From Anaerolineae bacterium (lineage in GTDB: Bacteria; Chloroflexota; Anaerolineae; B4-G1; SLSP01), in NCBI GenBank assembly GCA_035347995.1, contig DAOPQD010000001.1, forward strand, positions 46,012 through 110,011: a stretch of DNA of 64,000 nt, read 5' to 3'. The position numbers and the translations under genes are program-made. Positions 4,493-55,409 of the stretch are shown piece by piece. The notes beneath the pieces were generated by a model. It was not told the origin of the DNA, searched no databases, and saw only the letters and a list, made by a program, of their open reading frames with translations. Numbering within the stretch: the first letter of the stretch is position 1; each line of letters starts with the position of its first letter.

Positions 4493-4493
4493 C

Positions 4494-23905: not shown

Positions 23906-25399
23906 ATGATGACGGCAAATGTAGTGTCAGATTGTCCTGATAGCGACTATCGAATATCCTTATCCTTGCGGCGGTCGTGGCGGTTGCTGGCGTTGGTGGG
24001 AGTGACGTTTGTGTTGCGGGTGGTCTTCCTCGACGCGCAAAGCCTCTGGCGGGATGAGGTGGACGCCCTCAATTTTGCTACTGCGCCCTGGTCCGAGGTG
24101 TGGGGCAATTTCCTCCGCCCCGGTTGGAATGGCCCCCTCTATTTTTTGCTGCTGCGCGGTTGGGTGGCTCTCACGGGCAGAACGGCGTTTGCCCTGCGTT
24201 TTTTCTCGTTGCTGTGGGGCGTGCTCGCGATCCCCTTGATGTACGCCTTGGGGCGGCGTCACCTCGACGCGCGGACGGCGCGATGGGCGGCGGTGTTGGC
24301 GGCCTTTTCACCTTATCTCATCTGGTACTCGGCGGAAGTCAAGATGTACAGCTGGGTGCCGTTTCTGATCCTGTTGGCGCTCTATGCGCTGGATCGCGCC
24401 TGCGTCACGCCCCGGTGGAGCTGGTGGGCGCTGACCGTGGCAGGGCTCTCCCTGGCGGTCTACAGTCACATCCTTGCTACGTTGAGCATCCCCGTCGCCG
24501 TCCTCTGGTTCTGTTTGCACCCGAGGCGACATCCGCGCGCCTGGGTGGGGGCGCTGGCGGCGCTGGCGGCGCTCACGCTCCCTTATCTCCCGCTGCTTGC
24601 CTGGCAGTTCCCCATGGTGTTGGCCGATCGCGGAGTGACCGGTTTCCCGGCGCTCACCTTCGGGCAGATGGCGGGAAGCCTGCTGGTAGGGTGGAGCGCC
24701 GGCGTGCCGGCTATGGGAGGCGCCGTCGCGTCCTGGGGCAGCGCCCTCTTGGGCGTGTGGGGCGCCTGGACTCTGATCCGGCGTCGCCGCTGGCGGACCG
24801 CTGCCGCATTGGGAGCGTGGATTTTCGCGCCGCTAGGGCTGATCTGGTGGGTCTCGTTGCGCGGCCCTCTCTTCACGGATCGTTACCTGATCTGGGCCGC
24901 GCCGGCTTTCTACTTGCTTTTGGGCGCTGGATTGGCGGGACTGCGAGGACGCTGGGTGCGTCAGGGGGCGTTGGTGGCGCTGATTCTGATCGCCGGAGCG
25001 AACCTCAGCGCGCAGCTGCTGCATCCCTACAAGCCACAGTTTCGGGAGGCCGCGGCGTCCCTCCGGCTGCGGCGTTTGCCGGAGGATTTGCTGCTGTTTC
25101 AGATCCCTTACAATCGCATCATGCTGGACTATTATTCGCCAACGCCTCTGGAACCCTGGGCTGACGCGCCTTACACCAATTTCCGCGATGCGGAGGGACG
25201 TTACACGGTGACCTTCGAGGCGGTGGATGCTCAGCTGCGCGCGCTCACGCAGGGGTATCAGCGGGTGTGGCTGGTGTATTCTGAAGCCACGCTCTGGGAC
25301 GAGCGCGAGCTGGTGAAGGCCTGGCTGGACATTCACGGGCGCCTCCTCTATGAGCAGCAGTTCCTGATGGTCTCGCTGGCGTGTTACGAACTGCCATGA
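23906..25399 (+). CDS. GT-C fold glycosyltransferase, PMT/ArnT (GT39/GT83)-like membrane protein
   Basis: An 11-12 TM protein. The first extracytoplasmic loop has the catalytic DE motif (QSLWRDEVDALNF) of PMT/ArnT-family enzymes, followed by W/R-rich loops. There is a TATAGT hexamer 7 nt upstream of the ATG and no RBS, making it a possible leaderless transcript. Confidence 0.7.
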   Translation: MMTANVVSDCPDSDYRISLSLRRSWRLLALVGVTFVLRVVFLDAQSLWRDEVDALNFATAPWSEVWGNFLRPGWNGPLYFLLLRGWVALTGRTAFALRFFSLLWGVLAIPLMYALGRRHLDARTARWAAVLAAFSPYLIWYSAEVKMYSWVPFLILLALYALDRACVTPRWSWWALTVAGLSLAVYSHILATLSIPVAVLWFCLHPRRHPRAWVGALAALAALTLPYLPLLAWQFPMVLADRGVTGFPALTFGQMAGSLLVGWSAGVPAMGGAVASWGSALLGVWGAWTLIRRRRWRTAAALGAWIFAPLGLIWWVSLRGPLFTDRYLIWAAPAFYLLLGAGLAGLRGRWVRQGALVALILIAGANLSAQLLHPYKPQFREAAASLRLRRLPEDLLLFQIPYNRIMLDYYSPTPLEPWADAPYTNFRDAEGRYTVTFEAVDAQLRALTQGYQRVWLVYSEATLWDERELVKAWLDIHGRLLYEQQFLMVSLACYELP

Positions 25400-32845: not shown

Positions 32846-32870
32846 TAGCGTCTGATGTCTGGCCGGAATC

Positions 32871-32914
32871 AACACCGTCGTGGTGGAATGAAGTTCCCAT
32901 CACGACGGTGTTTT
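32871..32914 (+). terminator. Rho-independent terminator of clpB
   Basis: aacaccgtcgtggtgg-aatgaagttcc-ccatcacgacggtgtt followed by TTTTG. It begins 26 nt after the clpB stop. Confidence 0.7.
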
Positions 32915-32915
32915 G

Positions 32916-33137
32916 TCAGAAGACCGCGCGGATCATGAGCATCACCCCCAGAATGGCGAGAGGGATCCCCACAATCGCGCCGATGAGGGTGAGGCTCAGA
33001 AGCACTCCCACGATCAGCAGCACTACGCCTAGCACTGCCGTGACCAGCCGGCCAGTCAGCTTCAAAATCCCACACACCAGATTCCAGAGCACGGCAAAGG
33101 GCCATAAAAACCACGGAACTGTCGTTGTATCAATCAT
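32916..33137 (-). CDS. Small two-TM inner-membrane protein (YccF/DUF307-like)
   Basis: 73 aa with two hydrophobic helices. The motif IGAIVGIPLAILGV resembles the YccF-type IGIPFG signature. RBS GAGGTGAAGG is present. Confidence 0.45.
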   Translation of the reverse strand: MIDTTTVPWFLWPFAVLWNLVCGILKLTGRLVTAVLGVVLLIVGVLLSLTLIGAIVGIPLAILGVMLMIRAVF

Positions 33138-33267: not shown

Positions 33268-35535
33268 TCATCCCCCGGCGCGAACCCGAACGCTCCCCAG
33301 GGGAACCAGGGCATTAGGAAGCGGGGCCTCGTCCTCTGAGGCGGGGAGGCGCGTCCCATCGGCAGCGCGATACAACCCTGCCCACAGATGATAGTCGCCG
33401 GGCGGGAGCGTTGCCGGGACGGCGAGGACATGCGTGTCGGGGACGATGTCCCCTGGCTGCCAGAGCGGGGTGGGGAACCAGCCGTCACGCGGTTCGCTGT
33501 CGTGCTGGGCGTAGGCCGTTGCCGCCCCGGGCTCCCAGAGATGCACGAAGGCTATCAGCGGCTCGTTGATGGTCGAGGCGGCTTCCCAGTACAGGGTCAC
33601 GGTGAGAGGCTGTCCCGCCTGCACCGTGGGACTGCGGTCATAGCCCCGCAGGACAGTGGCCTCGCCGAAGTCCACCGCCAGCGGATATGCCGGCTCTGGA
33701 ACGTGCGCTTCTTTTGGAGCCAGCACGACCGAGGCGACGATGGGTGGCGCGACGGGAATGTCCCCCGCGGTCGCCGGAAGCCGCTCGCCCGTTGCGGCGT
33801 CGAAAAGTCCGATTTCTAGCAGCGCGCGGAGCGGCGTGTCTACCTGGGAGGGGAGCGTCAGCTCGTACACATCGCAGAACGCGCGGCCCACAGGCCATAG
33901 CGAGGTGGGGAACCGTCCCAGCCCTGGATACGTGCGCCGTGAGGTGATGATCCCGTTTTCGGGACCGAGAAGCTGGACGAAGACGGTGTAATCGCGCGTC
34001 ATGGGGCGGGCAGCCTGCCAGCAGGCGCGCACGGCGAAGTCATCTCCGGGCGCCAGTCGCTCTGTTTTCACGAGGGCGGCGCTCAACAGCAGCGCTTCAT
34101 CGTCGTAGCGCAGTTGGGGCGTCGAGATCATCGTCGGCGAGAACAATTTTGGCGGCGCAAAAGTCGCCAGAATCCGCGCGCCGGGGGCCAGGACGGTGAG
34201 GGTGACGAGCAGCGTGAGGAAGAGCTTCTGGTAACGGCGGGGAGCGCGGCCGGAACCTTGAAATCCCGCCGCTATCAGCACTGCCCACGCTCCAATCGCC
34301 GGGAACAGCAGCCGTCCGTGGGGCGCTTCGACCTGTCGCATCCAGTGCAACAGCGCGGCGAAAACCCCCATCAACCAGAAAGTGCAGAGCAGGTAGATGG
34401 CTCGCGAGCGCCGGGAGGGGACGGCTGAGGCAGGCCGGGGGCTGCGGAGCATCCGATAGAGCCCATGGAGGAGGGCTCCTAGCGTGAGCAGCGTCAGCGC
34501 GACGTAAATCCAGTCGGGCCACCAGACGTGTCCCCATCCATACGCGCCCCAGAAGGAGCGCCACAGCAGGGGGAACTCCGGGACCAGCGCCAGCAGGGAA
34601 ACCGGCGCCGGGCGCCCCCACAAGGTATTGACGTGATGGGACATGCCCAACGGGTCCCCGTAGAGGAACAGATTGCGGAGATACCACCCCCCACCGACGA
34701 GCAGCGCCGTCAGCCCAAAGGCCAGCGCCGCGCGCCATGTGTCCCGATAGCGTCGCATTCCCCGCGGCGGCGCGGGCTGCTCCTGCGTCTGTCGCCATCC
34801 CTGCCAGAGCAGGCTCAGGCCGGTGAGGGGGAGCAGCAACAGCGCGCTCGTTTTCGTCAGCGCTGCCAGGCCGGCAAGGGCGCCGGCGAGGGCGGCGCGG
34901 TGCGGGGTGATTCCCCGCCGCAGAAAACGCGCCGTGGCCCACAGGGTGGCGGTAGAAAGGGCGGCGGTAGCGCTGTCGTTGCTGACCACGCTGCTCATGA
35001 AGACGAATTGGGGATGAAAGCCCACCAGGGCCGCGGTGAGCAGTGCCGCGCGCTGATTCCCAAATGCCTCGTAGCCCATTCCCCACGCGGCGCAGACGGT
35101 CACCAGGCCGAAGAGCAGCGAGGCGAAGCGAGCGATCCGCACGGCGAGGACGGCGCCGCGGCCCGGAAAGCCTTCCCGTGGGGTGTGGATGAGCATGTTT
35201 TTGTTGTCGGGCGTAGTTCCCGGCGCCTGATAGCCGAAATGTGGATTGTGCCAGAACAACGTCTGCAGGTCGTCATCGGGGAAGGGGGCGCTGAGCAACG
35301 CCGCGACGGCGTAATAGAGCGGCGGTTGCGCCACTTCCTGATTCGCGCCGCTGGCATTGTCCTTCATGGAGGGCAGGCCGTGTCCTTCGGCGAGCCAGCG
35401 GACGTAGGCGTAGTGCCAGACCTCATCGGGCGCTTCGAAAAGTGGCGTGGCCCAGCCATGCAGCACCACCAACACCGCGAATGCGGCGAGGAGCGGGATG
35501 AGCGGATGCAGGCTGCGGCGACGGCTACAGTTCAT
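33268..35535 (-). CDS. GT-C fold (PMT/ArnT-like) membrane glycosyltransferase, paralog 1, with C-terminal periplasmic tandem beta-domains
   Basis: The DE motif sits in loop 1 (LFEAPDEVWHYAYV), followed by a multi-TM core (~450 aa). The C-terminal ~280 aa carries two copies of a ~85-aa module (YTVFVQLLGPENG...SLWPVG.. and IAFVHLWEPGAA...PLWQPGDIV...GDYHLWAGLYRAADGTRLPA). The start overlaps the stop of the upstream paralog (ATGA). Confidence 0.7.
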   Translation of the reverse strand: MNCSRRRSLHPLIPLLAAFAVLVVLHGWATPLFEAPDEVWHYAYVRWLAEGHGLPSMKDNASGANQEVAQPPLYYAVAALLSAPFPDDDLQTLFWHNPHFGYQAPGTTPDNKNMLIHTPREGFPGRGAVLAVRIARFASLLFGLVTVCAAWGMGYEAFGNQRAALLTAALVGFHPQFVFMSSVVSNDSATAALSTATLWATARFLRRGITPHRAALAGALAGLAALTKTSALLLLPLTGLSLLWQGWRQTQEQPAPPRGMRRYRDTWRAALAFGLTALLVGGGWYLRNLFLYGDPLGMSHHVNTLWGRPAPVSLLALVPEFPLLWRSFWGAYGWGHVWWPDWIYVALTLLTLGALLHGLYRMLRSPRPASAVPSRRSRAIYLLCTFWLMGVFAALLHWMRQVEAPHGRLLFPAIGAWAVLIAAGFQGSGRAPRRYQKLFLTLLVTLTVLAPGARILATFAPPKLFSPTMISTPQLRYDDEALLLSAALVKTERLAPGDDFAVRACWQAARPMTRDYTVFVQLLGPENGIITSRRTYPGLGRFPTSLWPVGRAFCDVYELTLPSQVDTPLRALLEIGLFDAATGERLPATAGDIPVAPPIVASVVLAPKEAHVPEPAYPLAVDFGEATVLRGYDRSPTVQAGQPLTVTLYWEAASTINEPLIAFVHLWEPGAATAYAQHDSEPRDGWFPTPLWQPGDIVPDTHVLAVPATLPPGDYHLWAGLYRAADGTRLPASEDEAPLPNALVPLGSVRVRAGG

Positions 35536-38390
35536 TGGGGCCTCACGGTGAGGGGAATCACGACGGCGTTCTGCGGCGGAACCGATGCGGCGCTGCTCAC
35601 GGCGAGCGGCCCCGCTTCATCATACAGGCCGACGCGCAGGTCGTAGCTTCCCGCCGGCAATCCTGCCAGGGGATGCTCATCGGCGACGATCTCGCCGGTC
35701 ACCCAGGTGGTGGTAGGTTTTCCTCCCAGCGCGGGCCAGCTGTCATGTTGCCCGAGGAGCGGGCTGATGGTGCCGGGGGCCGTGACGTGGACGAACACGT
35801 TGTAGGGCGAGTTGCCGGTCTCCTCAGCGCGCCAGTAAAGGGTGAGGGTGAAGGGTTGTCCGGCGCCAGGCTCCGGCTCCAGCCGATAGCCAAGCAGTGC
35901 GGCGACGCCTGGACCGAAGTCCCCCGTCGCGGGCAGCAGGCCGTCCGGCGGCTGGAATTCCCGCCCGGCCACGATAGAGATCTCTGGCCCGCGCCATCGG
36001 GCCAGCGGCGCGCCCGCGGCAGTGAGGAGCTCCGCGGTGAGGGGGGCCTCGGCATCCAGCGCGCGGCAGGAGATGGGCAGGCGGAACTGCGTGGCGAAGC
36101 GGGTCCCGGCGGGAAGGGGAGAGGTCACGTTGGCCGCCGTCAGGGGCAGCGTCACCGCGTGTTCGGCGAGAGATAGGCGCAGGACATCGCGCCTGTCGGC
36201 AACGGCATAGGGCGCTGGGACCGCCCAAAATGCCCGGCCCTCGAGCGGCTCGCAGGGCCGCATGGTTTCCCGGCTGAGCCAGAACCCCAGCAGCTCGAGC
36301 GGGGAAGCTCCGGCGGTCGCCGCGCCGGGCTCTACCGGGATGGCATTTTCGGGGAGCGGGGGCGGCGCGGTCGCCGGCAACAGTTCGACCGGCTGCAGGG
36401 TGACGCTCGCCGAGGCGGCTCCTGCCACGTAGACGGTGAGGGTGGGCGTGGTGCTGCCGGGAGGCGTCCAGGGGTCAGGCGTCAGCGGATAGCGACCCAG
36501 CACGGGCGTCCCCGCCTGCCAACGCGAGGGACGGTAATCGCCGCTCGCCGGGGTGCCGTTGAAGCGCGCCCACTCATCGCCGCGAGCGTCGAGCAGGCGC
36601 AGCGCTACCTGATAGAAGCGCTCGCCGTGCGCGGCAGGATCTTCGGTGACCCAAAAGGTCCACACATCCAGGGTGCTGTCAACGGGCTGCGGCGCTTGGG
36701 GAAGCCGATAGCCCCACAGCGTCAGGTGAGGCAAAGTGGGCGTCGCCAGGCGTTCGGTGAGGTCGGGCTCTGGCGGGAAGTCGGCGCGGCGCGCAAGTGC
36801 AAAACGGCGCAGGCCCAGCCCGTGGAATTCCGGCGTGGGCACTTCGGCGCCCAGCTCCCCCAGCAGCGCGGGGACGACGCCGGTGGGATCGGTGATGGTC
36901 TCGAGCCAGGTGACGAGCCAGACCTGGGACGTGTTCTGGAGCGCCGCGTTCAGAGCGGCGGCGCCATTCGCGTAGTCAAGAACGTGGGTCACGTCCAGCA
37001 GTTTGTCATCAGGGAGGGGCAGCAGCCCCTCGAAGCCGGCATAGTACGCCCATGCCGGGAAGACCGAGCCTGTCTCTACGATGATGACGTCGCCGGGCGC
37101 GCGATTTTCCATGACGTAGTGCGCAACGCTGCGCCAGTCCTCCGTGGCGTAGGTCGGATCGGTGAGGAGATTGGCGTCCGCCTGCGCCGAAAGCGCGACG
37201 ACGAGCACGCTACACACGCCCAGGCCCAGTCGGGCCAGCGTGCGTCGGCGTCGGCCATGAAGCTGCGCCGCCATCCCCCAGCCGATGGCCAGGGCCAGCA
37301 CGGGCAGTGGTGCAAAGCCTGAGGCATGGCGACTGCCCCATTTGGGCAGATTGCGGAAAACTACTGCCATGAGCCCCAGGGGCATCAGTTGCAGCAGGGG
37401 ATAGAGTCCCGCAAGGGGACGACGGCGCGTCAGGATCAAGGCCCCAAACGAGGCCACCAGTATCAGGCCTCCCGCCGCGACCTTCCAGGCTGAGGGTAGA
37501 AAGTCGAAGACCGTCATGCCGGCAATGGAAGTGCGCAAAAATTCGGCGATGGGCAAATATCCTTCCCAGTAGGTGGCGTTTTGTCCCAGGGAGGGGAGGG
37601 CCTCCAGGACCCAGGGCAGAAAGATCAGCCCGGCGAGGAGTGTAGGGGGGAACATCGCCTGAAGCCACGCGCGCACCTCTTGCCAGGGACGACGGATCAG
37701 CGCGAGGAGCGCGAAGAGCGCCTGCCCCACCAGCCAGAACGCCGACAGCGTTAATGAAGCCATGGCACCCAGGGCGGCGGCACCCCACAGCCAGGCCCAC
37801 CGTCGGCGGGGACGTGGTTCGAGGGCGAGGAGCGTCTCGACTAACGCCATCCCCGCCAGGAGTGACCAGGCGATGAACGCGCCGTACATTCGGGTCTCGC
37901 GCGAGGCCCAAATTAAGGTGGGGGCAAGCGCGCCCAAAAGCAAGGCCCAAGTGCCGGCTGAGCGTTTGCCGGACAGTCGGCGGGCCATGTGGGCCAGCGC
38001 CGCGAGCGCGAGCAGGCCGTAGAGGGCCGAGGGGAACCGCAGGGCGAATTCGCTGGCGCCGGCGAGCGGAATCCAGGCGCGGAGCAAGAAATAGTGGGCC
38101 GGCGGGACGAGTTCGCTCGCGCTGAGCGCCAGCATCTCGCGCACGCTTACCTGAGTGGTCGCCCACCACAGATAGGCCTCGTCATACCACAGGCTACGCG
38201 CGCCGAGGCCTCCAACGCGCAACGCGAACGCCATCCACGGGAGCAGTATCACCCCTGCGTGTCGCTCAAGCCATCGTTTCACGGGCAGCCCTTGACTGAG
38301 TTCATAGAAGAGCACTTTTCTAACCGCTGAGCGGACCAGAGACACAGAGGCAAAAGCCCCCTGGCAGACAAAACGGTGGCCAGAGAACAT
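35532..38390 (-). CDS. GT-C fold (PMT/ArnT-like) membrane glycosyltransferase, paralog 2 (952 aa), with long C-terminal periplasmic repeat region
   Basis: DE motif RSLWYDEAYLWW and a multi-TM core. The C-terminal ~450 aa contains the same repeated module (YQVALRLLDARGDEW...RWQAGTPV; YNVFVHVTAPGTISPLLGQHDSWP...WVTGEIV...GSYDLRVGLYDEAGPLAV). The exact start is uncertain (38390 or an internal Met). Confidence 0.65.
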   Translation of the reverse strand: MFSGHRFVCQGAFASVSLVRSAVRKVLFYELSQGLPVKRWLERHAGVILLPWMAFALRVGGLGARSLWYDEAYLWWATTQVSVREMLALSASELVPPAHYFLLRAWIPLAGASEFALRFPSALYGLLALAALAHMARRLSGKRSAGTWALLLGALAPTLIWASRETRMYGAFIAWSLLAGMALVETLLALEPRPRRRWAWLWGAAALGAMASLTLSAFWLVGQALFALLALIRRPWQEVRAWLQAMFPPTLLAGLIFLPWVLEALPSLGQNATYWEGYLPIAEFLRTSIAGMTVFDFLPSAWKVAAGGLILVASFGALILTRRRPLAGLYPLLQLMPLGLMAVVFRNLPKWGSRHASGFAPLPVLALAIGWGMAAQLHGRRRRTLARLGLGVCSVLVVALSAQADANLLTDPTYATEDWRSVAHYVMENRAPGDVIIVETGSVFPAWAYYAGFEGLLPLPDDKLLDVTHVLDYANGAAALNAALQNTSQVWLVTWLETITDPTGVVPALLGELGAEVPTPEFHGLGLRRFALARRADFPPEPDLTERLATPTLPHLTLWGYRLPQAPQPVDSTLDVWTFWVTEDPAAHGERFYQVALRLLDARGDEWARFNGTPASGDYRPSRWQAGTPVLGRYPLTPDPWTPPGSTTPTLTVYVAGAASASVTLQPVELLPATAPPPLPENAIPVEPGAATAGASPLELLGFWLSRETMRPCEPLEGRAFWAVPAPYAVADRRDVLRLSLAEHAVTLPLTAANVTSPLPAGTRFATQFRLPISCRALDAEAPLTAELLTAAGAPLARWRGPEISIVAGREFQPPDGLLPATGDFGPGVAALLGYRLEPEPGAGQPFTLTLYWRAEETGNSPYNVFVHVTAPGTISPLLGQHDSWPALGGKPTTTWVTGEIVADEHPLAGLPAGSYDLRVGLYDEAGPLAVSSAASVPPQNAVVIPLTVRPQ

Positions 38391-38448
38391 GGAGTTTTAG
38401 TGGTTTTCTCTTCAAGAGTGTCTCATGCTCCCAGGCTGGACGGTCGTC

Positions 38449-39546
38449 TTACGGTTTTACGATTTCGATGTTGCCGTATCCCTCGGTGACACAGGCGTCG
38501 GCAGTGGGGCGGCGGGAAAGCAGCCGGACGATGATTTTGTCGCCGGATTGCAGGGATTGCATTCCCGGAATGCTCACGCTGTGGCTAGTCGTAGGGGTCG
38601 GATTGAGCACAGTGGCCTGCCATATATCGCGCATTATCAATGGCAGGAACATCGTGTGACTCATGGGAGCCGTCGTTGTGACAGGGGCCGTGCTGCCCAC
38701 TATCTGATACCATACCTGTGTCGAGCCGGGGACAGTGGTGTTCCAGTTCAGGAGGAGGTTATCGCCGTCGAAGGTGTGCTGCACTGAGGCAGAATCAATG
38801 TAAGGCGAGTTCCATGAGGTCGGCTCCGGCAGCTTGCCGTTGGGGAATCCAACCTGTACCAGGGCGCCGTTGTCCCACCAGGCATCGTACCAGGCGGTCT
38901 GATCGCCGGTGTAGGAGGGATTGGCGTAGGTGATAGCGGTGAGCCGGGTTCCCAGTGGTTCTGCCGTCGTCGCGAGGCGTTCCCACGTGGTCAAGATGGT
39001 CTGTTCGGCTGACCAGGCCGTGCGTGGCGGCATTTGTCCGCCGATGAGATCGTTGTGATCGTGATCCAGGGTGATTTGCGTGCCTTGCAGGTCGAGGCCG
39101 ATGCGTGTATGGGGCACTGTCCCCGCGTTGCCGCGGCTATTGACGTACATCGAGAACTCGTAGGGCACACAGGGGGTCAAATTCTCCACGACCTGATAGA
39201 CCCCTGCCTGGTAGTTGGCGCCCCATTTGAAGTATACTTGCGCGTGACGCCCGCTGTAAGGGGGCCATCGGAGGGCGCCGGAACGCATGTCATCGTATTC
39301 GGGGATCATGGTGTTTGCCGCCGGCATGTTCACCCACTAGCGATACCAGTTCAAAGCCAGAAAGTGGTTTGGAGGAAACCAGATGAAACCGTGGGTCGCA
39401 GGATCTTCGGCTTCAAAGTCGCCGTTTACCAGAACGTTGCCGTTGTTGGCCTGCACTGCGGGGGCAGGGTTGGCGTTGGGCTGGAACAGCAGCAAGCTGC
39501 CCAGCATCACCAGAATCCAAACGTAACGCAAACGCGAAGTTTTCAT
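38449..39546 (-). pseudogene. Secreted CBM4/9-like carbohydrate-binding protein interrupted by an in-frame TAG (39337-39339), making it a candidate pseudogene or readthrough gene
   Basis: The track gives ORF 39337..39546 (69 aa: signal peptide MKTSRLRYVWILVMLGSLLLFQPNANPAPAVQA followed by NGNVLVNGDFEAED..., a CBM_4_9-type start) and ORF 38449..39333 (294 aa, no signal peptide, GTG start). They are in the same frame and separated only by TAG plus one TGG codon. RBS GGGGGGA lies upstream of the 39546 ATG. Confidence 0.5.
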
Positions 39547-39649
39547 GGAATCCCCCCTTTTCTATAGCATAAATGTAGATGGATAAGTCCAGAGAGGCAG
39601 TTTTCCGTTTGGACTTTCCTGTGTGATTCTACCACAATTTTGCCGAGCT

Positions 39650-41845
39650 TCAGCGCGACCAGAGGACAAGGGCGTCGTTGGGCTGACGTTCGGCGCCGAC
39701 GAAAGCGGCCAGGCGCGCGCCGGTCTCCGGATGATAAAGCCCCACGGCGATGGTGACGGGGGCCTCTGCCGCGGTGAGCCGGTGACTATCCAGGACGCGG
39801 TCGCCGGGAAGCCAGAGGTGGGTGGGGAAGGCCTGTCCCATTGGTGGAGCGTCGCCTGTCGCCAGGAGCGCGCCATCGGCGGCGCAGGCATGGACGAAGA
39901 CGGTGTAGTCCGCATCCACCGGCGCGAGGCTCTCCCAACACAGGGTCACTTCCCACGCATCGTCCCGTTCCGTGAGGGCAGCGTGGGTGAGCGCGAGCGC
40001 CTCCCCAAAGCGGGCTGGCATTTCCAGCGGGGGGAGGGTGTCGCACGGCGGCTGACTTCCCTGGATTCGCAGGGTGTCCAGCCTTGCCGCATCGCCCGCG
40101 GGCTGTCCCGCGAGGGTGACGGGGAGCCGTGCCTTGGTCTCGCCATCGTAAAAGGCAAGGTGAAGCTCCCATGCCTGCGTGGGAAGGTCGCTTGCGGGCA
40201 GCGGTAACAGCAATTTCTCGCGGAGCAGGGCCCCGGCAGGCCAGGCAGAGGTCGGCAGATTGCCATGTCCAGGCCAGGCATCGTAGGTGAGGCGGAGGGT
40301 GTTGTCGCCAGACCGGGCGGAGACGAGTTGCACGGCGAGCGCCCACTCCTCATCGAGGGGACGCAACGCTTCCAGGTAGAGCTGCAGCTCCAGGGCGGGA
40401 CGACAGTAGCTGGATTGCACCAGCCAGCAGGCCAGGCGCGACTCCGTCAACCGCACCTCATAGCCGCGCAAAGCGATGGCTTCCGCGCCGAAGACGACGT
40501 CGGTGGTGTAGGGGAGGGGTGTTGAGTCTTCCAGACGGGCGGGAGGAGCGAAGAGCGGCGCTGCGCCGGCGAGGAGCGTGATCAGTGCGCCGAGCGGCAG
40601 CCAGATGGCCCAGGCGCGCGCCAGTCGCGGCTGAAGCTGCTGCCAGCCGACCGCGAGGAGCACCGCGAGGGCGGGGGCTGCGGGAAAGAGCAGCCGTCCT
40701 CCCGTCGCCGGGGTGAGGGCATTCCAGCGCACCCATGCGACCACGATGATGACGAACCAGCCGCCCAGGAGCGCCAGCTCCGTCCGCCGCGCAAGGGTGC
40801 GGAAGTGCGCCATGAGGCCCACGCAGCCGCCTCCGAGCAGCGCGAAAAAGGGCCAGTAGAGCGCCCGGGGATAGAAAGCGCACGGCAGCTGTCCCCAATA
40901 GGAGCGCAGCATCAGCTGGAACGTGCCCCAGAGATCCACGCGTACCGCCGTGCGCCCGACGACGTCCAGCATGGGGGCGAGGGCGGTCAGATCGCCGTAG
41001 AGCCGCCAGTTGCGTCCCAGCCACGGCGTGACGAGTGCCAGCGCCGGAACAACGAGCAGCACTCCCCAGCGCAGCAGCCGGGTCAGTGGGGCGCGTTGCC
41101 GCCAGGCGTAGGCCAGGAGGGTCAATCCGCCCAATCCGAGCAGTCCCAGTCCGCTGAGTTTGCTCAGCGCTGCCAGTCCCGTCAGGATGCCAAAGCCGAG
41201 GAGGCGCGTTGGCGTCGGACCACGCTGCCAGATGTCCACCAACAGCACCAGCGCCCAGGTGGCCAGCGGGATGACGAGGTTATCGTTGTTCACCCCGGCC
41301 GCGAGGAGCAGGAATTGCGGGTTGAAGGCGACGACGGCCGTCGCCAGCGGCGCGACGAATCCTCGGGGCGCCAGCCGTCGGGCAAGAGCCCACGTCCCTG
41401 CGACGGTGGCGCATTGTAGAAGGGTGGAAAGCAGCCGCAGCGCGTAGACCGTGCGGCGATGTCCTTCCGGAGGGAACCCGGTGTAGGGATCGCGGCTCCA
41501 GGTGACGCGATTGTAGAGCGTATCGCCAGAGCCACAGGCGACGAAGGTGGCGGGAATGGGCCGCACGTCCGGCGCTTCGCGGGGCAGACCCCACAGGCGC
41601 ACCCACGCCGCGCCAAGGAGATGGTACAGCGGCGGCTGCGAGGCTTCTTGCCGGACATGGAAGCCGGCCGCCTCGGCCTCGCCATGGACGGGCAGCCGGC
41701 CGGTCACGGCGATGTGGCGGATGACCTCCGCGTGTTCGATCTCGTCGAGGTTTTCGTAGGGTGGGATCGTTATGTTCCAGGCCAGCGCCAGGCTTACGAA
41801 GGTCACCAGAATCAGCCATAGGCCGGCGCGTGAGGAGTGCATCAT
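39650..41845 (-). CDS. GT-C fold (PMT/ArnT-like) membrane glycosyltransferase, paralog 3, with C-terminal tandem beta-domains
   Basis: The start is taken at MMHSS (41845), which overlaps the esterase stop as ATGA; the track start at 41875 is also possible. DE motif is YENLDEIEHAEV, followed by a multi-TM core. C-terminal repeats are WALAVQLVSARSGDN...SAWPAG.. and YTVFVHACAADGALLATGDAPPMGQAFPTHLWLPGDRV...GLYHPETGARLAA. Confidence 0.7.
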   Translation of the reverse strand: MMHSSRAGLWLILVTFVSLALAWNITIPPYENLDEIEHAEVIRHIAVTGRLPVHGEAEAAGFHVRQEASQPPLYHLLGAAWVRLWGLPREAPDVRPIPATFVACGSGDTLYNRVTWSRDPYTGFPPEGHRRTVYALRLLSTLLQCATVAGTWALARRLAPRGFVAPLATAVVAFNPQFLLLAAGVNNDNLVIPLATWALVLLVDIWQRGPTPTRLLGFGILTGLAALSKLSGLGLLGLGGLTLLAYAWRQRAPLTRLLRWGVLLVVPALALVTPWLGRNWRLYGDLTALAPMLDVVGRTAVRVDLWGTFQLMLRSYWGQLPCAFYPRALYWPFFALLGGGCVGLMAHFRTLARRTELALLGGWFVIIVVAWVRWNALTPATGGRLLFPAAPALAVLLAVGWQQLQPRLARAWAIWLPLGALITLLAGAAPLFAPPARLEDSTPLPYTTDVVFGAEAIALRGYEVRLTESRLACWLVQSSYCRPALELQLYLEALRPLDEEWALAVQLVSARSGDNTLRLTYDAWPGHGNLPTSAWPAGALLREKLLLPLPASDLPTQAWELHLAFYDGETKARLPVTLAGQPAGDAARLDTLRIQGSQPPCDTLPPLEMPARFGEALALTHAALTERDDAWEVTLCWESLAPVDADYTVFVHACAADGALLATGDAPPMGQAFPTHLWLPGDRVLDSHRLTAAEAPVTIAVGLYHPETGARLAAFVGAERQPNDALVLWSR

Positions 41846-42609
41846 TCCATTCCTTCGGGAGGCCTCTCGAACCATTCTCGCGCTGCCTGCCAGGCGCGTT
41901 CGCGGTCAAGATCGAGGACCACGGTGTGTCCGCCGCGTTCCAGCCAGAGCAGCTGCTGTGGTCCGCCGAGCCGCGCCGCGACTTGACGGACCACGCGCGG
42001 GGGAACGGCGTGATCATGGCGGGCGTGGACGAGCAGGGTGGGGACACGCACGTCGGGCAGGCGCGCGTCCATGGCGAGCAGAAAACTGCCCAGTTCTGCC
42101 ACGGCCCGTAAGGGAATGCGCCGGTAAATGAAGCGGGCGCGACGAGCGGCGGCGTCGTGCATGTCGGAGCCGATTTTGGGCAGATAGGGGATCACGCGGG
42201 CGAGATGAGAGAGCCAGCCAGGCGGTAAGCCGTGGAAGGCAAAGCCGCCGGGGGTAGCGAAGGCGACTACCCGCTCCACGGGGTCCTCGGCGGCGACGTA
42301 GAGCGCCAGCGCCGCGCCGAGCGAGACCCCGGCGATGCCCAGGTGCTGACGTTGGCGGCGCAGTTCGGCGAGGCCGGCGCGGACGTCCGCGACCCAATCC
42401 TGCCAGTGGACGGCGGCGAGATCTTCGGGAGTGGTGCCGTGGCCGCGCAGCCGGATGCCAGAGACGGTCATGCCGGCGCGCGCCAGCGCTTCGCCGAGGG
42501 GCCGGACTTCATCCGGTGCAGTGAGGAAACCGTGAATGAGCAGGATGCCCGGCTCTCCGCCGGGCAGAAAGAACGGCGTCGGTTCTGGTCGCGCGCGATC
42601 TTCTTTCAT
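41842..42609 (-). CDS. Alpha/beta-hydrolase fold esterase/lipase-like protein (first gene of the envelope operon)
   Basis: GILLIHGF (oxyanion region) and the nucleophile elbow GVSLGAALAL (GxSxG). The His/Asp region is VHARHDHAVP. 255 aa. Confidence 0.75.
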   Translation of the reverse strand: MKEDRARPEPTPFFLPGGEPGILLIHGFLTAPDEVRPLGEALARAGMTVSGIRLRGHGTTPEDLAAVHWQDWVADVRAGLAELRRQRQHLGIAGVSLGAALALYVAAEDPVERVVAFATPGGFAFHGLPPGWLSHLARVIPYLPKIGSDMHDAAARRARFIYRRIPLRAVAELGSFLLAMDARLPDVRVPTLLVHARHDHAVPPRVVRQVAARLGGPQQLLWLERGGHTVVLDLDRERAWQAAREWFERPPEGME

Positions 42610-42657: not shown

Positions 42658-42685
42658 GTTGACAAAAGGCCCCGGCGGACTATAA
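42658..42685 (+). promoter_or_regulatory. Consensus sigma70-type promoter TTGACA-N16-TATAAT for secDF
   Basis: cgcgTTGACAaaaggccccggcggacTATAATccgcc, about 65 nt upstream of the secD ATG, with RBS GAGTGAGGGG. Confidence 0.6.
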
Positions 42686-42748
42686 TCCGCCTTTGGCTTG
42701 CCGCAGGGATTTCCCCGTACAACGGCGCTATTCCTTGAGTGAGGGGCT

Positions 42749-44122
42749 ATGAATAGAAAGACGCTAACTTCCCTGGTGTTGATCTTGTTGTTGGCGGCCG
42801 TGGCGCTTTATCTGGTGGTGCCGTCGCAGCATCCTGAGTGGCTGAAGCGCCTGCTGCTGTGGCAACCGGAGACCGCGCGCTCCCTGGAATTCATGCAGGG
42901 GTTGGACCTGCAAGGTGGGCTGCAACTCTCGATGGTGGCCGACGTGCCTGCCGGACAGCAGCTCTCCGCCGAAACGATGCGTGCGGCGGCGCAGGTGGTC
43001 GAGGGCCGCGTCAACGCGCTGGGCTTGAGCGAGCCGGTGGTGCAGGTGCAGGGGACGCGGCGCATCATCGTCGAGCTGCCCGGCATCGCCGACCCGGAGC
43101 AGGCGATTGATACCATCCGCGATACGGCGCTGCTTGAATTCGCCGAACCGCCTGCCGGCGCCGGCGAGGCGGAACTGACGCCCGGACGGGTCGTCAGCAC
43201 CACCTACGGCATGGGCGAGGACGTCACGGCGCCGCCCGGCTACTACAAGACGATTCTCATCGGTGATGCGCTGGATTCGGCCTTCAACACGGTGGATGAG
43301 ACTACCGGGCAGCCCATGGTGATCGTGCGCTTCAAAGCGGCGGATACACAGCGTTTTTACGAGTACACGAGCAATAACATCGGGCGCCCTCTGTGCATGG
43401 TGCTCGACAAAACTATCCTCTCGTGCCCTACCATCCGTGATGCCATCCCTGATGGCGAGGCGCAGATTTCCGGCGGGTTCACGTCGGAGAGCGCGCAGCA
43501 GCTCGCGATTCAGTTGCGCTACGGCGCCCTGCCGGTGCCGCTGAAAATCGAAAGCTACCGGGCGATTGGCCCGTCGCTGGGTGCAATTTCAGTTGAGAAA
43601 AGCATCCGCGCCGGCGTGGTCGGTCTGCTGGTGGTGTTCCTGTTCATGTTGATTTACTATCGCCTCAATGGCCTGGCGGCGGATCTGGCGCTGGCGCTCT
43701 ACGTGTTGCTCAACCTGTTGCTCTACAAATTGTTGCCCGTTACGCTGACCCTGCCAGGGATCGCAGGCTTCTTGCTCTCGGCGGGCATGGCCGTGGATGC
43801 CAACATTTTGGTCTTCGAGCGCATGAAGGAGGAATTGCGCCATGGGCGCTCGTTGGAACGGGGCGCGGAGGCGGGATTCAGCCGCGCGTGGACCTCGGTG
43901 CGCGACTCCAATCTGGCAACGCTTTTGACGTGTGCCATTCTCTGGTTCTTTGGCAACGCTTTTGCCGCGAGCCTCGTCAAAGGCTTCGCGCTGACGCTGG
44001 CGCTCGGTACGCTGATCAACATGTTCACCGCGCTGATGGTGACCCGAACTTTCGTCCGTACGGCCCTGGGGGTGCTGGGCGAAGAACGGGTGCGGCGCCA
44101 TCCCTGGTTGCTGGGAATTTAG
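42749..44122 (+). CDS. secD: Protein translocase subunit SecD
   Basis: The N-terminal TM is followed by a large periplasmic domain, then six C-terminal TM helices with SecD motifs (LPGIAGFLLSAGMAVDANILVFERMKEE). It is followed 12 nt later by secF. Confidence 0.9.
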   Translation: MNRKTLTSLVLILLLAAVALYLVVPSQHPEWLKRLLLWQPETARSLEFMQGLDLQGGLQLSMVADVPAGQQLSAETMRAAAQVVEGRVNALGLSEPVVQVQGTRRIIVELPGIADPEQAIDTIRDTALLEFAEPPAGAGEAELTPGRVVSTTYGMGEDVTAPPGYYKTILIGDALDSAFNTVDETTGQPMVIVRFKAADTQRFYEYTSNNIGRPLCMVLDKTILSCPTIRDAIPDGEAQISGGFTSESAQQLAIQLRYGALPVPLKIESYRAIGPSLGAISVEKSIRAGVVGLLVVFLFMLIYYRLNGLAADLALALYVLLNLLLYKLLPVTLTLPGIAGFLLSAGMAVDANILVFERMKEELRHGRSLERGAEAGFSRAWTSVRDSNLATLLTCAILWFFGNAFAASLVKGFALTLALGTLINMFTALMVTRTFVRTALGVLGEERVRRHPWLLGI

Positions 44123-44134
44123 GAGGCTGACGAG

Positions 44135-45061
44135 ATGATTGACTTTGTTCACAATCGCAGGACCTATTTCATCCTGGCCGGGGTGTTGGTGGCGCTGAGC
44201 GTGGCGGCGATGCTGGTGTCTTATGTCACCTATGGACAGCTGGTGCGCATTGGCATTGATTTCAAGGGTGGCAGTCTGTTCTCAGTGCACTTCACGGCTC
44301 CTGTCACCGAGGACGTGATCCGTGAGGCTTTTGCAGAGGAAGGCTATACCAGCACCATCGTGCAGCAGTTGGGCGACCCCGCCGACAATACCTGGCAGAT
44401 TCGGACCAGTTTTGCGACGACCGATCAGATCAACGCCGTGTTGGAGCGCCTCGAGGAAATCACCGGCGCGGTGGATCGCAGCAGCTCGGTGGTGGATACG
44501 GTGGAAGCCACGGTGGGGGCGGAAGTGGCGCGCAGCGCCGCGCAGGCAGCTGGCGTGGCGGCGCTCGTCGTGCTGACGTTTATCTGGTTCTCGTTCCGTA
44601 AGGTGCCCCATCCGCTGCACTATGGCGTCGCTTCGGTCGTGGCGATGCTGATCAACGTGATCGTGGCCATGGGCTTCTATGCGCTCATGGGCTTGCTACA
44701 GGGGTGGGAAGCCGATGCGCTGTTCCTCACGGCGATCCTCACGGTGATCGGGTTCTCGGTTCAGGACATCATCGTGGTGTTCGACCGCATCCGCGAAAAT
44801 ATCCCGCGTCATCGCGGCGAGCCTTTCTCGCTGATCGTGAACCGCAGCATCATGGAGACGCTGCACCGTTCACTGGCGACGCAGCTGAACGCGATGTTCG
44901 TGATGATTGCCATCTTGTTGTTCGGCGGTGCGACGCTCAAGCCCTTCATTGCCGTGATGCTGGTAGGAATGCTCAGCGAGACCTTCACTTCGATGTTTGT
45001 GGCGGTTCACATTGTCGGGTTGTGGGAGGAGCATCGGAAGTCGCGTCCTGCGCGGGCGTGA
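44135..45061 (+). CDS. secF: Protein translocase subunit SecF
   Basis: RBS AGGAGG. The signature IDFKGGSLFSVHF is present, with C-terminal TM helices carrying GFSVQDIIVVFDRIREN. Confidence 0.9.
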   Translation: MIDFVHNRRTYFILAGVLVALSVAAMLVSYVTYGQLVRIGIDFKGGSLFSVHFTAPVTEDVIREAFAEEGYTSTIVQQLGDPADNTWQIRTSFATTDQINAVLERLEEITGAVDRSSSVVDTVEATVGAEVARSAAQAAGVAALVVLTFIWFSFRKVPHPLHYGVASVVAMLINVIVAMGFYALMGLLQGWEADALFLTAILTVIGFSVQDIIVVFDRIRENIPRHRGEPFSLIVNRSIMETLHRSLATQLNAMFVMIAILLFGGATLKPFIAVMLVGMLSETFTSMFVAVHIVGLWEEHRKSRPARA

Positions 45062-49993: not shown

Positions 49994-50833
49994 TTAGTTG
50001 CCGGGGGCTTCTTGCCTGGCAGCCTCGATGCCGCTCTGAACCTCGGCCGCATGGGCCAGAGTGGCTTCCTTTTTGCTGCTTAGCAGGGCGTCCTTGAGCG
50101 TGGCGATAATCAGCAGCGAGATGGCGAAGCTGCCGATATCGAGCGGGCTTTGGCCGGGGGTGGTGATGGCCATCTCGGCCTCGCGCGCGGCCAGGGTCGT
50201 CCCGCTGTCGGCAATGCAGACGGTAGGGATGCCTTTGGCGTTCGCCAGTTTAACCGCGTGACCGGTGTCCACGCCGGGGGTGCCAAAGACCAGCGCCAGC
50301 AGCACATCCCCAGCCTGCATGTCGTTAGTGGCCTTGGCGACTTCCACCATACTGGGGGCGAAGTGGAAGACGGGAATCCCCAAGGGGACGAGGCTTTCCG
50401 CCAGATACCGGGCAATGTCGTAGCTGGGGAATTCCCCGACGATCCAGATGCGTTCTGCATTCTGGAGCATCTTCAACGCCTGGGCCAGGTGAGGGGCCTC
50501 GGTGGTTGCAAACTGCTCCAGGTCCTGGGCCTTACTGGCAAAGAGCGCCTGCACGAGATCCTCTTCGTTGCCTGCCTCGACGGCCTTGTGATAGGTCTGC
50601 GCGATCTCCCCGCGCACGTAGGCCTTGATTTCCCTGGAGAGCTCCCGGAACCCGCTATAGCCGATTTCCTGTGAGAAACGCACGACGGTCGCCGGATCAA
50701 TCCCAACGCGCCGGGACAGTTCTGTCGCTGTCAGGAAGGCAACGTCAAGGGTTTGATTGAGGATGAAATCTGCCAGGCGGCGAAATCCAGGGGTCAAATT
50801 AGCATAATGCTCTTCAATCCGTTCTCGAAACAT
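49994..50833 (-). CDS. RpiR/MurR-family transcriptional regulator (HTH_6 + SIS domain), paralog 1
   Basis: The N-terminal HTH is LTPGFRRLADFILNQTLDVAFLTATELSRRVGIDPATVVRFSQEIGYSGFRELS. The C-terminal SIS domain is RIWIVGEFPSYDIARYLAE...GDVLLALVFGTPGVDT. Confidence 0.8.
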   Translation of the reverse strand: MFRERIEEHYANLTPGFRRLADFILNQTLDVAFLTATELSRRVGIDPATVVRFSQEIGYSGFRELSREIKAYVRGEIAQTYHKAVEAGNEEDLVQALFASKAQDLEQFATTEAPHLAQALKMLQNAERIWIVGEFPSYDIARYLAESLVPLGIPVFHFAPSMVEVAKATNDMQAGDVLLALVFGTPGVDTGHAVKLANAKGIPTVCIADSGTTLAAREAEMAITTPGQSPLDIGSFAISLLIIATLKDALLSSKKEATLAHAAEVQSGIEAARQEAPGN

Positions 50834-50888
50834 GGTAGTCTCCTTTCCTTATACTGAATGCGTTGATGCTGCAAGGCCGAATCAGCTG

Positions 50889-51764
50889 TCAATCTTTCGT
50901 CTGAGGGAGGATTGCCTCGTAAGCGGCAGTGTGGGTGCGCAGCTCCAGGATTTCGCTGAGATACTCGTTGTAGGCGGCGAAGGACTCTGCCGTCTTGGCC
51001 GCCGTGGTGCCCGCCAGCGCTTCCCAGATCAGCGCGATGATCGCGAGCGCGGCGCCGGTGTTCGGGATGCCGGTCTCGCCGGCGGTGGGAACAAGGACGA
51101 CCAGTTCGGCTTCGTGGGCCGGCGCGCCGAGGGTGTTGTCGGCGATCGTGATCGTGTGCACGCCTTTCTCTCGCGCCATCCGCACCAGATACCCGGAATC
51201 AATGTCCGGCACGCTGATGGCCAGCACCAAGAGTGCGTCTCCCGGCTCCATCTTGCTGAGGGCAGCGGCGACGTTGAGCATATCCGGCGCAAACGCCCTG
51301 GCCTGGATGTCGGCGACTTGCAACATCCGTGCCAGGAACTGCGCGATGGCTTGCTGGGGGCCTTCCCCTGTGATCCAGACGCGCGGCGCCTGTTTGAGGA
51401 TCCGGAGCGCTTCACCGAGTTTGGCCGTCTCGGTCATGGAAAAATCTGCGAGGTTTTGGCGTGTGCTGTCCAGAAGCTGGTGCACCAGCGCCTCTTCACT
51501 TTCGGCCTCGACGCTTTTGCGGTAGGTAGTCGTCACCTGATCGCGCACGTAATGTTTGATCTCGTGTGAGAGCTCGCGATACCCGCTATAGCCGATCTCC
51601 TGCGCAAAGCGGACGACGGTGGCCGGATCCACTCCTACACGGCGGGAGATTTCGGTGACGGTGAGGAAGGCCGCGTCGAGTGTGTGGTCCATGATGAAAT
51701 CGGCCAATTTGCGAAAACCCGGCGTCAAACTATCGTAATACTGTCGAATTTGCTCTTGAAACAT
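50889..51764 (-). CDS. RpiR/MurR-family transcriptional regulator, paralog 2
   Basis: The start is taken at MFQEQIRQYYDSL (51764) with RBS AAGGAGA 8 nt upstream; the track ORF extends to 51803 without an RBS. The HTH is LTPGFRKLADFIMDHTLDAAFLTVTEISRRVGVDPATVVRFAQEIGYSGYRELS, and a SIS domain follows. Confidence 0.8.
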   Translation of the reverse strand: MFQEQIRQYYDSLTPGFRKLADFIMDHTLDAAFLTVTEISRRVGVDPATVVRFAQEIGYSGYRELSHEIKHYVRDQVTTTYRKSVEAESEEALVHQLLDSTRQNLADFSMTETAKLGEALRILKQAPRVWITGEGPQQAIAQFLARMLQVADIQARAFAPDMLNVAAALSKMEPGDALLVLAISVPDIDSGYLVRMAREKGVHTITIADNTLGAPAHEAELVVLVPTAGETGIPNTGAALAIIALIWEALAGTTAAKTAESFAAYNEYLSEILELRTHTAAYEAILPQTKD

Positions 51765-51825
51765 GGTTGAAATCTCCTTACTTTGATTTGCTGATGGTGA
51801 CAATGCTGGAACGATATCCTTACGG

Positions 51826-55028: not shown

Positions 55029-55409
55029 TTATCTCCCGGCGGCGACGACTGAGGCGATGGCCTGTCCCCCGTCGTGGGTGAGGCTCACGGCCCATTCGGT
55101 GAGCTGTTGTGAGCGGGCCAACGTTTCGGCATAGCCATTCAAGACGATGATGGGGCGTCCGCTGGGGGTGTTGAGGATTTCGACTTCATGCCAGCGGATG
55201 CCTACCGGCGACAACAATCTCAAGCCCACTCCTAGCGTCTTGGCGACGGCTTCTTTGGCCGCGAAGTGCGCGGCCACCTCTGCCGGTTCCCGCCGAAGGT
55301 GCAGCAGCTCCCTGGGGGTGAAGATGCGCTCCAGAAACCGTTCGCCGTGCCGTTCGAGGACGCGCGCCATCCGGCGAATTTCGACGACGTCAATGCCATT
55401 GGCCAACAT
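55029..55409 (-). CDS. acpS: Holo-[acyl-carrier-protein] synthase (4'-phosphopantetheinyl transferase)
   Basis: 126 aa beginning [17 protein letters not shown] (AcpS pattern GiDiveixR) and containing FTPRE...[12 protein letters not shown]. The track ORF is extended upstream in-frame (55817) with no homology, which I rejected. Confidence 0.8.

Follow-up and report, generated by a model that had tools for sequence, protein, structure and literature searches.

Among described glycosyltransferases of the GT-C type, the protein O-mannosyltransferases (PMT; CAZy GT39) include yeast Pmt1/2/4 and actinobacterial Pmt, and the eukaryotic members carry MIR domains in a large luminal loop. ArnT and the PMT_2-type GT-Cs fall into GT83, and the mycobacterial arabinofuranosyltransferases of embCAB together with AftA-D into GT53 and relatives. 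Three-component systems for extracytoplasmic glycosylation (GtrA/B/V; C. youngae GT136 ORF12) use a GT-C with a C-terminal Ig-like carbohydrate-binding module (CBM) to modify polymers on the outer side of the membrane (Kelly et al., 2024, PMC11127046), which sets a precedent for CBM-bearing GT-Cs with polysaccharide targets. For lactococcal DUF2142-type GT-Cs, a role as polymerase or transferase of cell-wall polysaccharide has been proposed (PMC12599335); the roles assigned to the lactococcal and streptococcal proteins (WpsI as polymerase with WpsH as co-polymerase, and WpsJ as transferase) are predictions (PMC12599335, PMC9746298). Chloroflexota have layered envelopes but lack genes for an outer membrane or LPS; polysaccharide or protein is the presumed material of the layers, for which no biosynthetic route is known (PMC13319060). 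Literature searches found no work dealing directly with GT-C systems in Chloroflexi.

We analyzed a 64,000-nucleotide stretch of DNA from an uncultured member of the Anaerolineae (hereafter the window, with positions counted from its first nucleotide). The enzyme class is well known, and automated pipelines label such GT-Cs GT39 or ArnT-like; a conserved cluster in which several GT-Cs share a module of glycan-binding type and are joined by a secreted partner restricted to the lineage offers a concrete candidate for the machinery that makes Chloroflexota envelope layers. Positions 33268-42609 are occupied by five ORFs, all on the minus strand. In gene order these encode an alpha/beta-hydrolase (41842..42609, 255 aa), GT-C P3 (39650..41875, 741 aa counted from the first ATG), a two-domain secreted protein (38449..39546) whose reading frame contains a stop codon in this genome, GT-C P2 (35532..38390, 952 aa maximum), and GT-C P1 (33268..35535, 755 aa). 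The original prediction described a six-gene operon in this range; we count five genes, and a conserved gene for a 73-aa membrane protein (32916-33137) lies downstream, beyond the range. An 81-aa ORF in the same place (32869-33114) was discarded as non-protein-like.

The ATGA overlaps reported earlier were read directly from the sequence, at 41845-41842 (hydrolase stop and P3 Met11) and 35535-35532 (P2 stop and P1 start). P3 likely starts at Met11 or Met12 (41845 or 41842), and the true start of P2, for which gene calls of 952 and 900 aa exist, may lie 30-52 codons further in. There is a possible internal promoter ahead of the secreted-protein gene. A consensus scan for promoters and terminators performed, for terminators, no better than on shuffled sequence, so the operon boundaries are provisional. 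Elsewhere in the window, the two outlying genes named in the original prediction were found where expected: a fourth GT-C of PMT_2 type (23906..25399, plus strand, 497 aa) and ugd (58254-59585). As it had also stated, none of the window ORFs scanned encodes a polyprenyl-phosphate sugar synthase, and the same scan found neither a GT2 nor a flippase gene. Two ORFs of 1494 aa were compared for kinship and are unrelated.

P1, P2, and P3 are GT-C-fold enzymes with a multi-pass membrane domain of GT-C architecture, the fold being modeled for P1 and assigned through homology for P2 and P3. In P1 the membrane domain has about 11 helices and is followed by two tandem beta-sandwich modules, and in P2 a membrane domain of PMT_2 type precedes a central extracytoplasmic region and the C-terminal module. 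The description of the three as tandem paralogs holds for P1 and P3, which can be aligned from end to end (30% identity, E 5e-40), but not for P2, which has the C-terminal module alone in common with them and in its N-terminal membrane region resembles the fourth GT-C instead (37% identity, E 2e-15). The three GT-Cs of the cluster are two subfamilies.

In Pfam, P1 (48.7 bits), P2 (32.0), and the fourth GT-C (52.7) exceed the threshold of PMT_2, the family of ArnT-like enzymes (PF13231, 26.1 bits); P3 from the window has no PMT_2 match, though its ortholog in locus L003 does. For PMT itself (PF02366, 22.7 bits), P1 lies above the threshold (29.5), and P2 (21.3) and P3 (17.1) below. DUF2142 (PF09913) gives 18.1 bits for P1, under the threshold of 30.1, in contrast to 44.5 for its ortholog P0109, and many P1 orthologs carry a precomputed match; in this the orthologs, though not P1 from the window, resemble the lactococcal and streptococcal proteins. 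None of the proteins has a MIR domain in Pfam, unlike eukaryotic PMTs, with C-terminal beta-sandwich modules present instead, and none belongs to an Arabinose_trans-type sequence family like that of the mycobacterial enzymes. A separate Pfam search with the central region of P2 returned nothing significant.

Profile searches of the PDB, with the P1 alignment as with the secreted protein, gave chance matches alone (E > 0.4), so that only the fold comparison is informative; unlike a PMT, P1 shows no profile-level similarity to any PDB chain. Protein O-mannosyltransferases provide the best single match both in structure and in Pfam. ArnT is also among the top structural matches, and ALG12, ArnT, and AftB score nearly level with Pmt4, so the fold rank is no guide to the acceptor.

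An Asp-Glu pair directly follows the first transmembrane helix (TM1) in all four GT-Cs, as the original prediction had stated. In P1 (Asp37-Glu38, 35422..35427, minus strand) and P3 (Asp44-Glu45, 41741..41746, minus strand, first loop after TM1) it is embedded in an E-x-x-D-E-x-x-H motif; P2 (Asp70-Glu71, 38178..38183, minus strand) has LWYDEAY, of the class LWxDE, and the pair of the fourth GT-C is at 24053-24058 on the plus strand. Arginine-rich N-termini before TM1 in P1, P2, and P3 place the loop with the pair outside. Orthologs retain the pair without exception (65/65 P1-type, 34/34 P3-type, 9/9 P2-type, and 3/3 of the fourth type), and it is nearly invariant in the P1 alignment A2, in agreement with a catalytic role. 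We looked for evidence that the proteins are something other than GT-Cs and for loss of the pair among orthologs, and found neither.

The pair fits the PMT loop-1 motif. Together with the PMT and PMT_2 matches it brings in PMT-type protein O-glycosylation, in which sugars would pass from polyprenyl phosphate to Ser/Thr of secreted or wall proteins emerging from Sec, with the secreted protein of the cluster as dedicated acceptor or one among several. We consider this a live alternative, though rather unlikely, for reasons that begin with the C-terminal modules, which look like polysaccharide-binding domains, and with the near equality of ALG12, ArnT, and AftB to Pmt4.

Module A of P1 (33718..34116, minus strand, residues ~474-606) is a beta-strand domain in the model and is homologous to module B (33280..33702, minus strand, residues ~612-752). 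A hidden Markov model built from the P1 modules finds two copies in P3 on the same strand (40103..40438, i-E 9e-11 and 3e-10; 39662..40024, i-E 7e-25) and also detects the module in P2 (35610..35906, minus strand, i-E 4e-25; hhalign probability 98.9), where it is 39% identical to a P1 module over 145 aa. Among all window ORFs, the model recovers two copies in P1, two in P3, one or two in P2, and nothing elsewhere, the fourth GT-C included. Structurally, the C-terminal beta-sandwich region in the P1 model comes closest to Wzt O-antigen-binding domains, followed among its best neighbors by GH2 sugar-binding domains and RbmA. In Pfam the isolated modules gave nothing significant (Wzt_C, E 0.12), and a query of 139 aa alone, used to look for the module more widely, returned 11 short fragment proteins and was uninformative.

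Because this Wzt-like/Ig-like module is present in all three clustered enzymes and absent from the unlinked fourth, a single common acceptor is most likely. We favor a reading of the cluster, which we hold to have about an even chance of being correct, as a system that assembles or decorates a glycopolymer of the envelope, beyond the membrane, from lipid-linked sugars. By analogy with all characterized GT-C enzymes, the donors would be polyprenyl-phosphate-linked sugars that have been flipped across the membrane to its outer side, with the donor-synthesizing GT2 and the flippase presumably encoded elsewhere in the genome. P1, P2, and P3 would most likely work in succession on the common acceptor, a cell-envelope glycopolymer rather than a lipid, and their modules would grip the chain in the manner of the CBMs in EmbC, AftD, and GT136 ORF12. 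The secreted protein would be an accessory kept across the family; it might bind glycan as a scaffold, work like a co-polymerase, or be a partner associated with the wall. Counting against this reading are the PMT-type best single matches, the absence of a donor synthase and flippase from the window, the possible internal promoter ahead of the secreted-protein gene, and the dispensability of the secreted partner described below.

The GT-Cs with C-terminal modules resemble those of three-component systems, and in two distantly related loci (L069 and L074) a small GT2 lies beside the GT-Cs, in some cases together with a candidate flippase. The window itself has neither synthase nor flippase gene, however, and it encodes three GT-Cs rather than one, as well as a dedicated secreted jelly-roll protein of a kind that those systems lack. 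The DUF2142 systems are also alike in that a GT-C with an extracytoplasmic partner is proposed to act on cell-wall polysaccharide, but WpsH is membrane-anchored, whereas the partner here is soluble and secreted.

We found 62 related loci, and the clustering is conserved across Anaerolineae. The order hydrolase, P3, secreted protein, P2, P1 is identical in L004-L007, and in 21 of 49 loci the P1-type gene has a secreted-protein gene as its immediate upstream neighbor. The triad of P3-type, secreted, and P1-type genes is still seen at a secreted-protein identity of no more than 36%. Synteny of the hydrolase, secDF, clpB, and the 73-aa ORF is confined to close relatives. At more distant loci the neighbors are of polysaccharide type: GT4, GT2, and polysaccharide deacetylase in L001; a small GT2, UDP-GlcNAc 2-epimerase, and YfhO in L069; GT2, LPG_synthase_TM, and pyruvyl transferase in L074; and Wzy_C in L075. 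In combination with the Wzt-like modules, these genes tilt the acceptor toward glycan over protein, and so away from O-glycosylation.

GT-C genes are numerous in these genomes (at least five each in L069 and L075). This, with the restricted synteny of the flanking genes, would be expected if there were no integrated system at all, and independent GT-C genes were kept adjacent by inherited synteny and tandem duplication. We regard that explanation as very unlikely, since the genes share 4-nt start/stop overlaps, the module is exclusive to the three clustered enzymes and missing from the fourth, and the order P3-type/secreted/P1-type recurs with different flanking genes, at secreted-protein identities of 31-40%.

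The hydrolase matches Pfam Hydrolase_4 (4e-19) and, by sequence, the PDB entries 7e0n, 4fbl, and 5xks (E 1e-30 to 1e-34), which makes it, judging from these matches, an enzyme of the bacterial monoacylglycerol-lipase/LipS/Est30 carboxylesterase type. It has no signal peptide and looks cytoplasmic and lipase-like. The proposal that it is an esterase acting on a surface polymer is thus unsupported, given also that its linkage upstream of P3-type genes is limited to closer relatives; within this subclade it is probably coupled translationally to P3. Such coupling to a lipase-family enzyme could instead point to ArnT-style glycosylation of a membrane lipid or lipoglycan, possibly tied to lipid remodeling by the hydrolase. 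We find this highly doubtful. Many related clusters have no hydrolase gene (L023, L060, and most distant loci), and ArnT-type enzymes can do without the tandem extracytoplasmic beta-sandwich modules that the cluster enzymes bear in addition. Lipid A is moreover an implausible acceptor, since the lipopolysaccharide pathway is reported to be absent from the phylum (PMC13319060).

The secreted protein was previously described as a secreted CBM protein, which is borne out by its signal peptide and by a jelly-roll fold of CBM type; it falls outside any CBM sequence family, however, and its gene is interrupted here. The signal peptide is followed by the jelly-roll, which opens with an N-G-D-F-E signature; a linker containing Thr and Pro then leads to a beta-sandwich domain. 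In a model of a 91%-identical ortholog (P0121, pLDDT 90.4), the N-terminal domain appears as a beta-jelly-roll of the CBM4/9/22 type. Foldseek matches it to CBM70 4d0q, CBM61 2xom, CBM4-2 4bj0, CBM22 4xup, and 2y64 (E 1e-5 to 2e-4, target TM-score 0.69-0.71). Unlike members of these families, the protein has no attached catalytic domain; it also has no Pfam family and no sequence relatives in the PDB. Homologs form 98 clusters, and those with a named source are hypothetical proteins of Anaerolineae, Thermoflexia, or Chloroflexota. The E-x-x-D-E-x-x-H motif, the C-terminal module, and this jelly-roll protein family could serve as markers in other genomes.

Several features of the protein and its surroundings would suit O-glycosylation. 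The linker motif P-I/V-T-P/S-T is conserved and has a Ser/Thr fraction of 0.23 (vs. 0.15 overall), the jelly-roll domain is also found in LysM, TIG, PKD, and DUF11 surface proteins, secD/secF are divergently adjacent here and in L004-L007, L009, L010, L023, and L060, and a TMEM260_N GT-C adjoins the triad in L075. The Ser/Thr enrichment is modest, however, with a single near-invariant Thr, and the GT-C trio persists where the secreted-protein gene is missing (L001, L003, L012, and L013) and alongside a truncated copy here. The partner is thus dispensable, which weakens any model of an obligatory complex; under the favored glycopolymer reading, the transferases would probably function without it in this population.

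The recurrent triad of P3-type, secreted, and P1-type genes could also be a Chloroflexota-specific machine that polymerizes or anchors the non-lipid outer layer or sheath of filamentous Anaerolineae, with the secreted protein serving outside the cell as co-polymerase or scaffold while the growing chain is held by the Wzt-like modules. This more specific proposal seems to us quite unlikely; if it were true, the nonsense allele in this genome would be a natural knock-out of the accessory.

What interrupts the secreted-protein gene is a TAG, in frame at codon 70 (39337..39339, minus strand), which would cut the protein there in this population. All six aligned relatives have TGG (Trp) at this position, in the motif WYRWWVN. 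A one-off assembly error is unlikely, as the same codon occurs in contigs of two metagenome assemblies, JGI 3300010346 and Logan SRR4236650, which may not be independent of the source of the window. Recoding of TAG is unsupported, the relatives encoding Trp and the change being a single G-to-A; readthrough is possible. With a nonsense codon in the secreted partner, the full system is probably not intact in this genome. Relative to the L004 ortholog, the secreted-protein gene and P1 both have a dN/dS of 0.24; long-term decay is not visible, which indicates that the TAG mutation is recent or tolerated.

Within 33268-42609 the minus strand has five open reading frames, one fewer than the six-gene operon of the original prediction: an alpha/beta-hydrolase (42609-41842, 255 aa), the GT-C protein P3 (41875-39650, 741 aa), a secreted protein with an in-frame TAG (39546-38449), and the GT-C proteins P2 (38390-35532, up to 952 aa) and P1 (35535-33268, 755 aa). 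The sixth gene may have been one for a 73-aa two-helix membrane protein on the same strand (32916-33137), 131 nt downstream of P1. It has a weak DUF5362 match (E 3e-4), and its position is kept in related loci L003-L008 and shifted by ~6 kb in L025, L035 and L051. Both predicted ATGA overlaps are present, one (41845-41842) laying the hydrolase TGA over Met11 of P3, the other (35535-35532) the P2 TGA over the P1 ATG; at the sequence level, the hydrolase-P3 coupling is real. Gaps of 103 nt after P3 and at least 58 nt before P2 bracket the secreted-protein gene. By eye, TGgTAGAAT in the first gap (39626-39634, minus strand, ~80 nt before the start codon of the secreted-protein gene) resembles an extended -10 element, which suggests a possible internal promoter; it was absent from the scan output. 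A perfect sigma-70 consensus (TTGACA-16 nt-TATAAT, 12/12) lies on the plus strand at 42659-42686, within the 139-nt region between the hydrolase and divergent secD. The cluster is flanked by secD/secF (divergent, 42749-45061), a BatA/VWA protein gene and clpB. A JGI metagenome contig of 277.8 kb and GCA_022707685.1 both encode an identical P1, whose closest named relatives come from Anaerolineae MAGs.

The clustered enzymes and a fourth, separate gene (23906-25399, plus strand) have the GT-C fold. Pfam PMT_2 was matched above threshold by P1 (48.7 bits), P2 (32.0) and the fourth protein (52.7), and PMT by P1; P3 fell below threshold, and its ortholog in L003 matches PMT_2. The AlphaFold model of P1, built from 73 homologs, has a pLDDT of 89.6. 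Profile searches against PDB sequences gave no match for P1, so its lineage is remote in sequence from every solved GT-C. As predicted, all four proteins carry Asp-Glu a few residues past the first transmembrane helix (P1 D37E38, P3 D44E45, P2 D70E71, fourth D50E51), and their Arg-rich N-termini place this loop outside the cell. The pair is invariant in orthologs from 62 related loci (P1-type 65/65, P3-type 34/34, P2-type 9/9, fourth 3/3), which argues against both a non-GT-C identity and an unconserved motif. The extended motif E-x-x-D-E-x-x-H is common to the P1 and P3 types, and L-W-x-D-E to P2 and the fourth GT-C.

The description of three tandem paralogs holds for P1 and P3, which are 30% identical over their whole length (E 5e-40), but P2 matches them in its C-terminal ~145 residues only (39% identity; hhalign probability 98.9, limited to that region). 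Its N-terminal membrane region is instead related to the fourth GT-C (37% identity, E 2e-15). A hidden Markov model of the P1 C-terminal module, run across all window ORFs, found two copies in P1, two in P3, and one strong plus one marginal in P2, with none in the fourth GT-C or any other ORF; within the window, the module is exclusive to the three clustered enzymes. Pfam gave only an insignificant Wzt_C hint for it (E 0.12).

The secreted-protein gene starts at ATG 39546, and its product opens with a typical signal peptide (MKTSRLRYVWILVMLGSLLLF...AVQA). At codon 70, an in-frame TAG (39339-39337, minus strand) stands where 6/6 aligned relatives have Trp (TGG; motif WYRWWVN), and the window genome thus carries a nonsense allele. 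Contigs of JGI 3300010346 and Logan SRR4236650 share this TAG, and gene callers split the gene there as well, so it seems to be a genuine allele and not an assembly artefact. The gene's dN/dS against L004 (a 94%-related genome) is 0.24, equal to that of P1, so the lesion is recent or tolerated; the 294 codons past the TAG are intact (dN/dS 0.28). The prediction of a secreted CBM protein is supported by the signal peptide and, at the level of fold, by the model of intact ortholog P0121 (91% identical, pLDDT 90.4), whose N-terminal jelly-roll, followed by a C-terminal beta-sandwich, resembles CBM70, CBM61, CBM4-2 and CBM22 structures (target TM-score ~0.7), but not by any Pfam family match, and the window copy is interrupted. 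No sequence relative was found among PDB entries. Full-length members make up a small family, with 98 clusters at 90% identity and 64 representative ones at E < 1e-30; its source-named clusters are Chloroflexota "hypothetical proteins". The jelly-roll alone has ~1,000 representative clusters; in ten sampled proteins it was joined to LysM, SdrD_B, TIG, PKD or DUF11 surface-protein domains and in none to a catalytic domain.

The order secF-secD, then divergently hydrolase-P3-secreted-P2-P1, is identical in L004-L007 (P1 identity 69-94%); in L004, L005 and L007 a divergent clpB follows downstream. L003 lacks the secreted-protein gene, and L001, L012 and L013 retain only hydrolase-P3-P1. In distant loci the recurrent unit is P3-type/secreted/P1-type or P2/secreted/P1; the secreted-protein gene directly precedes a P1-type gene in 21 of the 49 loci with enough upstream sequence, and searches starting from its distant homologs (36-40% identity) led again to GT-C arrays such as those of L069, L074 and L075. 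The secreted partner is conserved and lineage-restricted. That these genes form no integrated system is improbable. Only in closer relatives is the hydrolase gene found with the cluster. The enzyme lacks a signal peptide, and its nearest matches are bacterial monoacylglycerol lipases, LipS and Est30 carboxylesterases (E 1e-25 to 1e-34), so a role for it as an esterase on a surface polymer is unsupported. Lipid modification by the system is improbable.

Polysaccharide genes accompany several related loci. GT4, GT2 and deacetylase genes lie directly upstream in L001; L074 combines the P3-type/secreted/P1-type triad with GT2, LPG_synthase_TM and pyruvyl transferase, and L075 combines it with TMEM260_N and Wzy_C proteins. 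L069 encodes YfhO, five further PMT/PMT_2-type or P1/P3-like GT-Cs, a second secreted paralog, a 247-aa GT2 and a UDP-GlcNAc 2-epimerase. These last two arrays (L069 335-21068, L075 1-18035) are much larger, with five to seven GT-C genes including YfhO and TMEM260_N types, two secreted jelly-roll paralogs, a LysM/SdrD_B protein, the small GT2, the epimerase and Wzy_C, and are probably a fuller version of the window system.

Their shared module suggests that P1, P2 and P3 would act on a common acceptor. Its Wzt-like fold, the polysaccharide genes, and precedents among CBM-bearing GT-Cs (EmbC, AftD, GT136 ORF12; PMC11127046) and DUF2142 GT-Cs of wall-polysaccharide assembly (PMC12599335) point to a glycopolymer. 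By analogy with known GT-C transferases, like which the enzymes may work, donors would be lipid-linked sugars; we give this glycopolymer reading about an even chance. Protein O-glycosylation, consistent with the PMT-like matches, the adjoining secDF and a PITPT-like linker, seems rather unlikely. Pipelines already label the enzymes GT39, ArnT or DUF2142. Unlike GT39 proper, the window enzymes lack a MIR domain, and with P2 and P3 under the PMT threshold membership is not demonstrable; nor are they members of the Emb/Aft families. Literature searches returned nothing on the shared-module GT-C combination, the secreted jelly-roll protein or the triad order. Two GT-C subfamilies unified by a Wzt-like module, a dedicated secreted jelly-roll protein, and a recurrent triad across Anaerolineae and Thermoflexales thus appear undescribed. 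The enzyme class is ordinary and the organism uncultured; the cluster offers a candidate way into the still unexplained non-lipid layers of the Chloroflexota envelope.

Elsewhere in the window, the plus strand encodes a run of GAF-rich signalling proteins (9-16817) of very large size (323, 582, 586, 1494 and 2164 aa). The last has six GAF domains together with PAS, histidine kinase and two receiver domains. Three sizeable ORFs had no Pfam match at E < 1e-4: 53609-54562 (317 aa), 55147-56682 (511 aa) and 62221-63207 (328 aa). Three tandem RpiR-type (HTH_6 + SIS) regulator genes lie at 49994-52752 (minus strand); L076 has two similar genes near a P1 homolog, with ugd and dtd, indicating conserved synteny of this neighbourhood, and also conserves the 330-aa gene that follows dtd.
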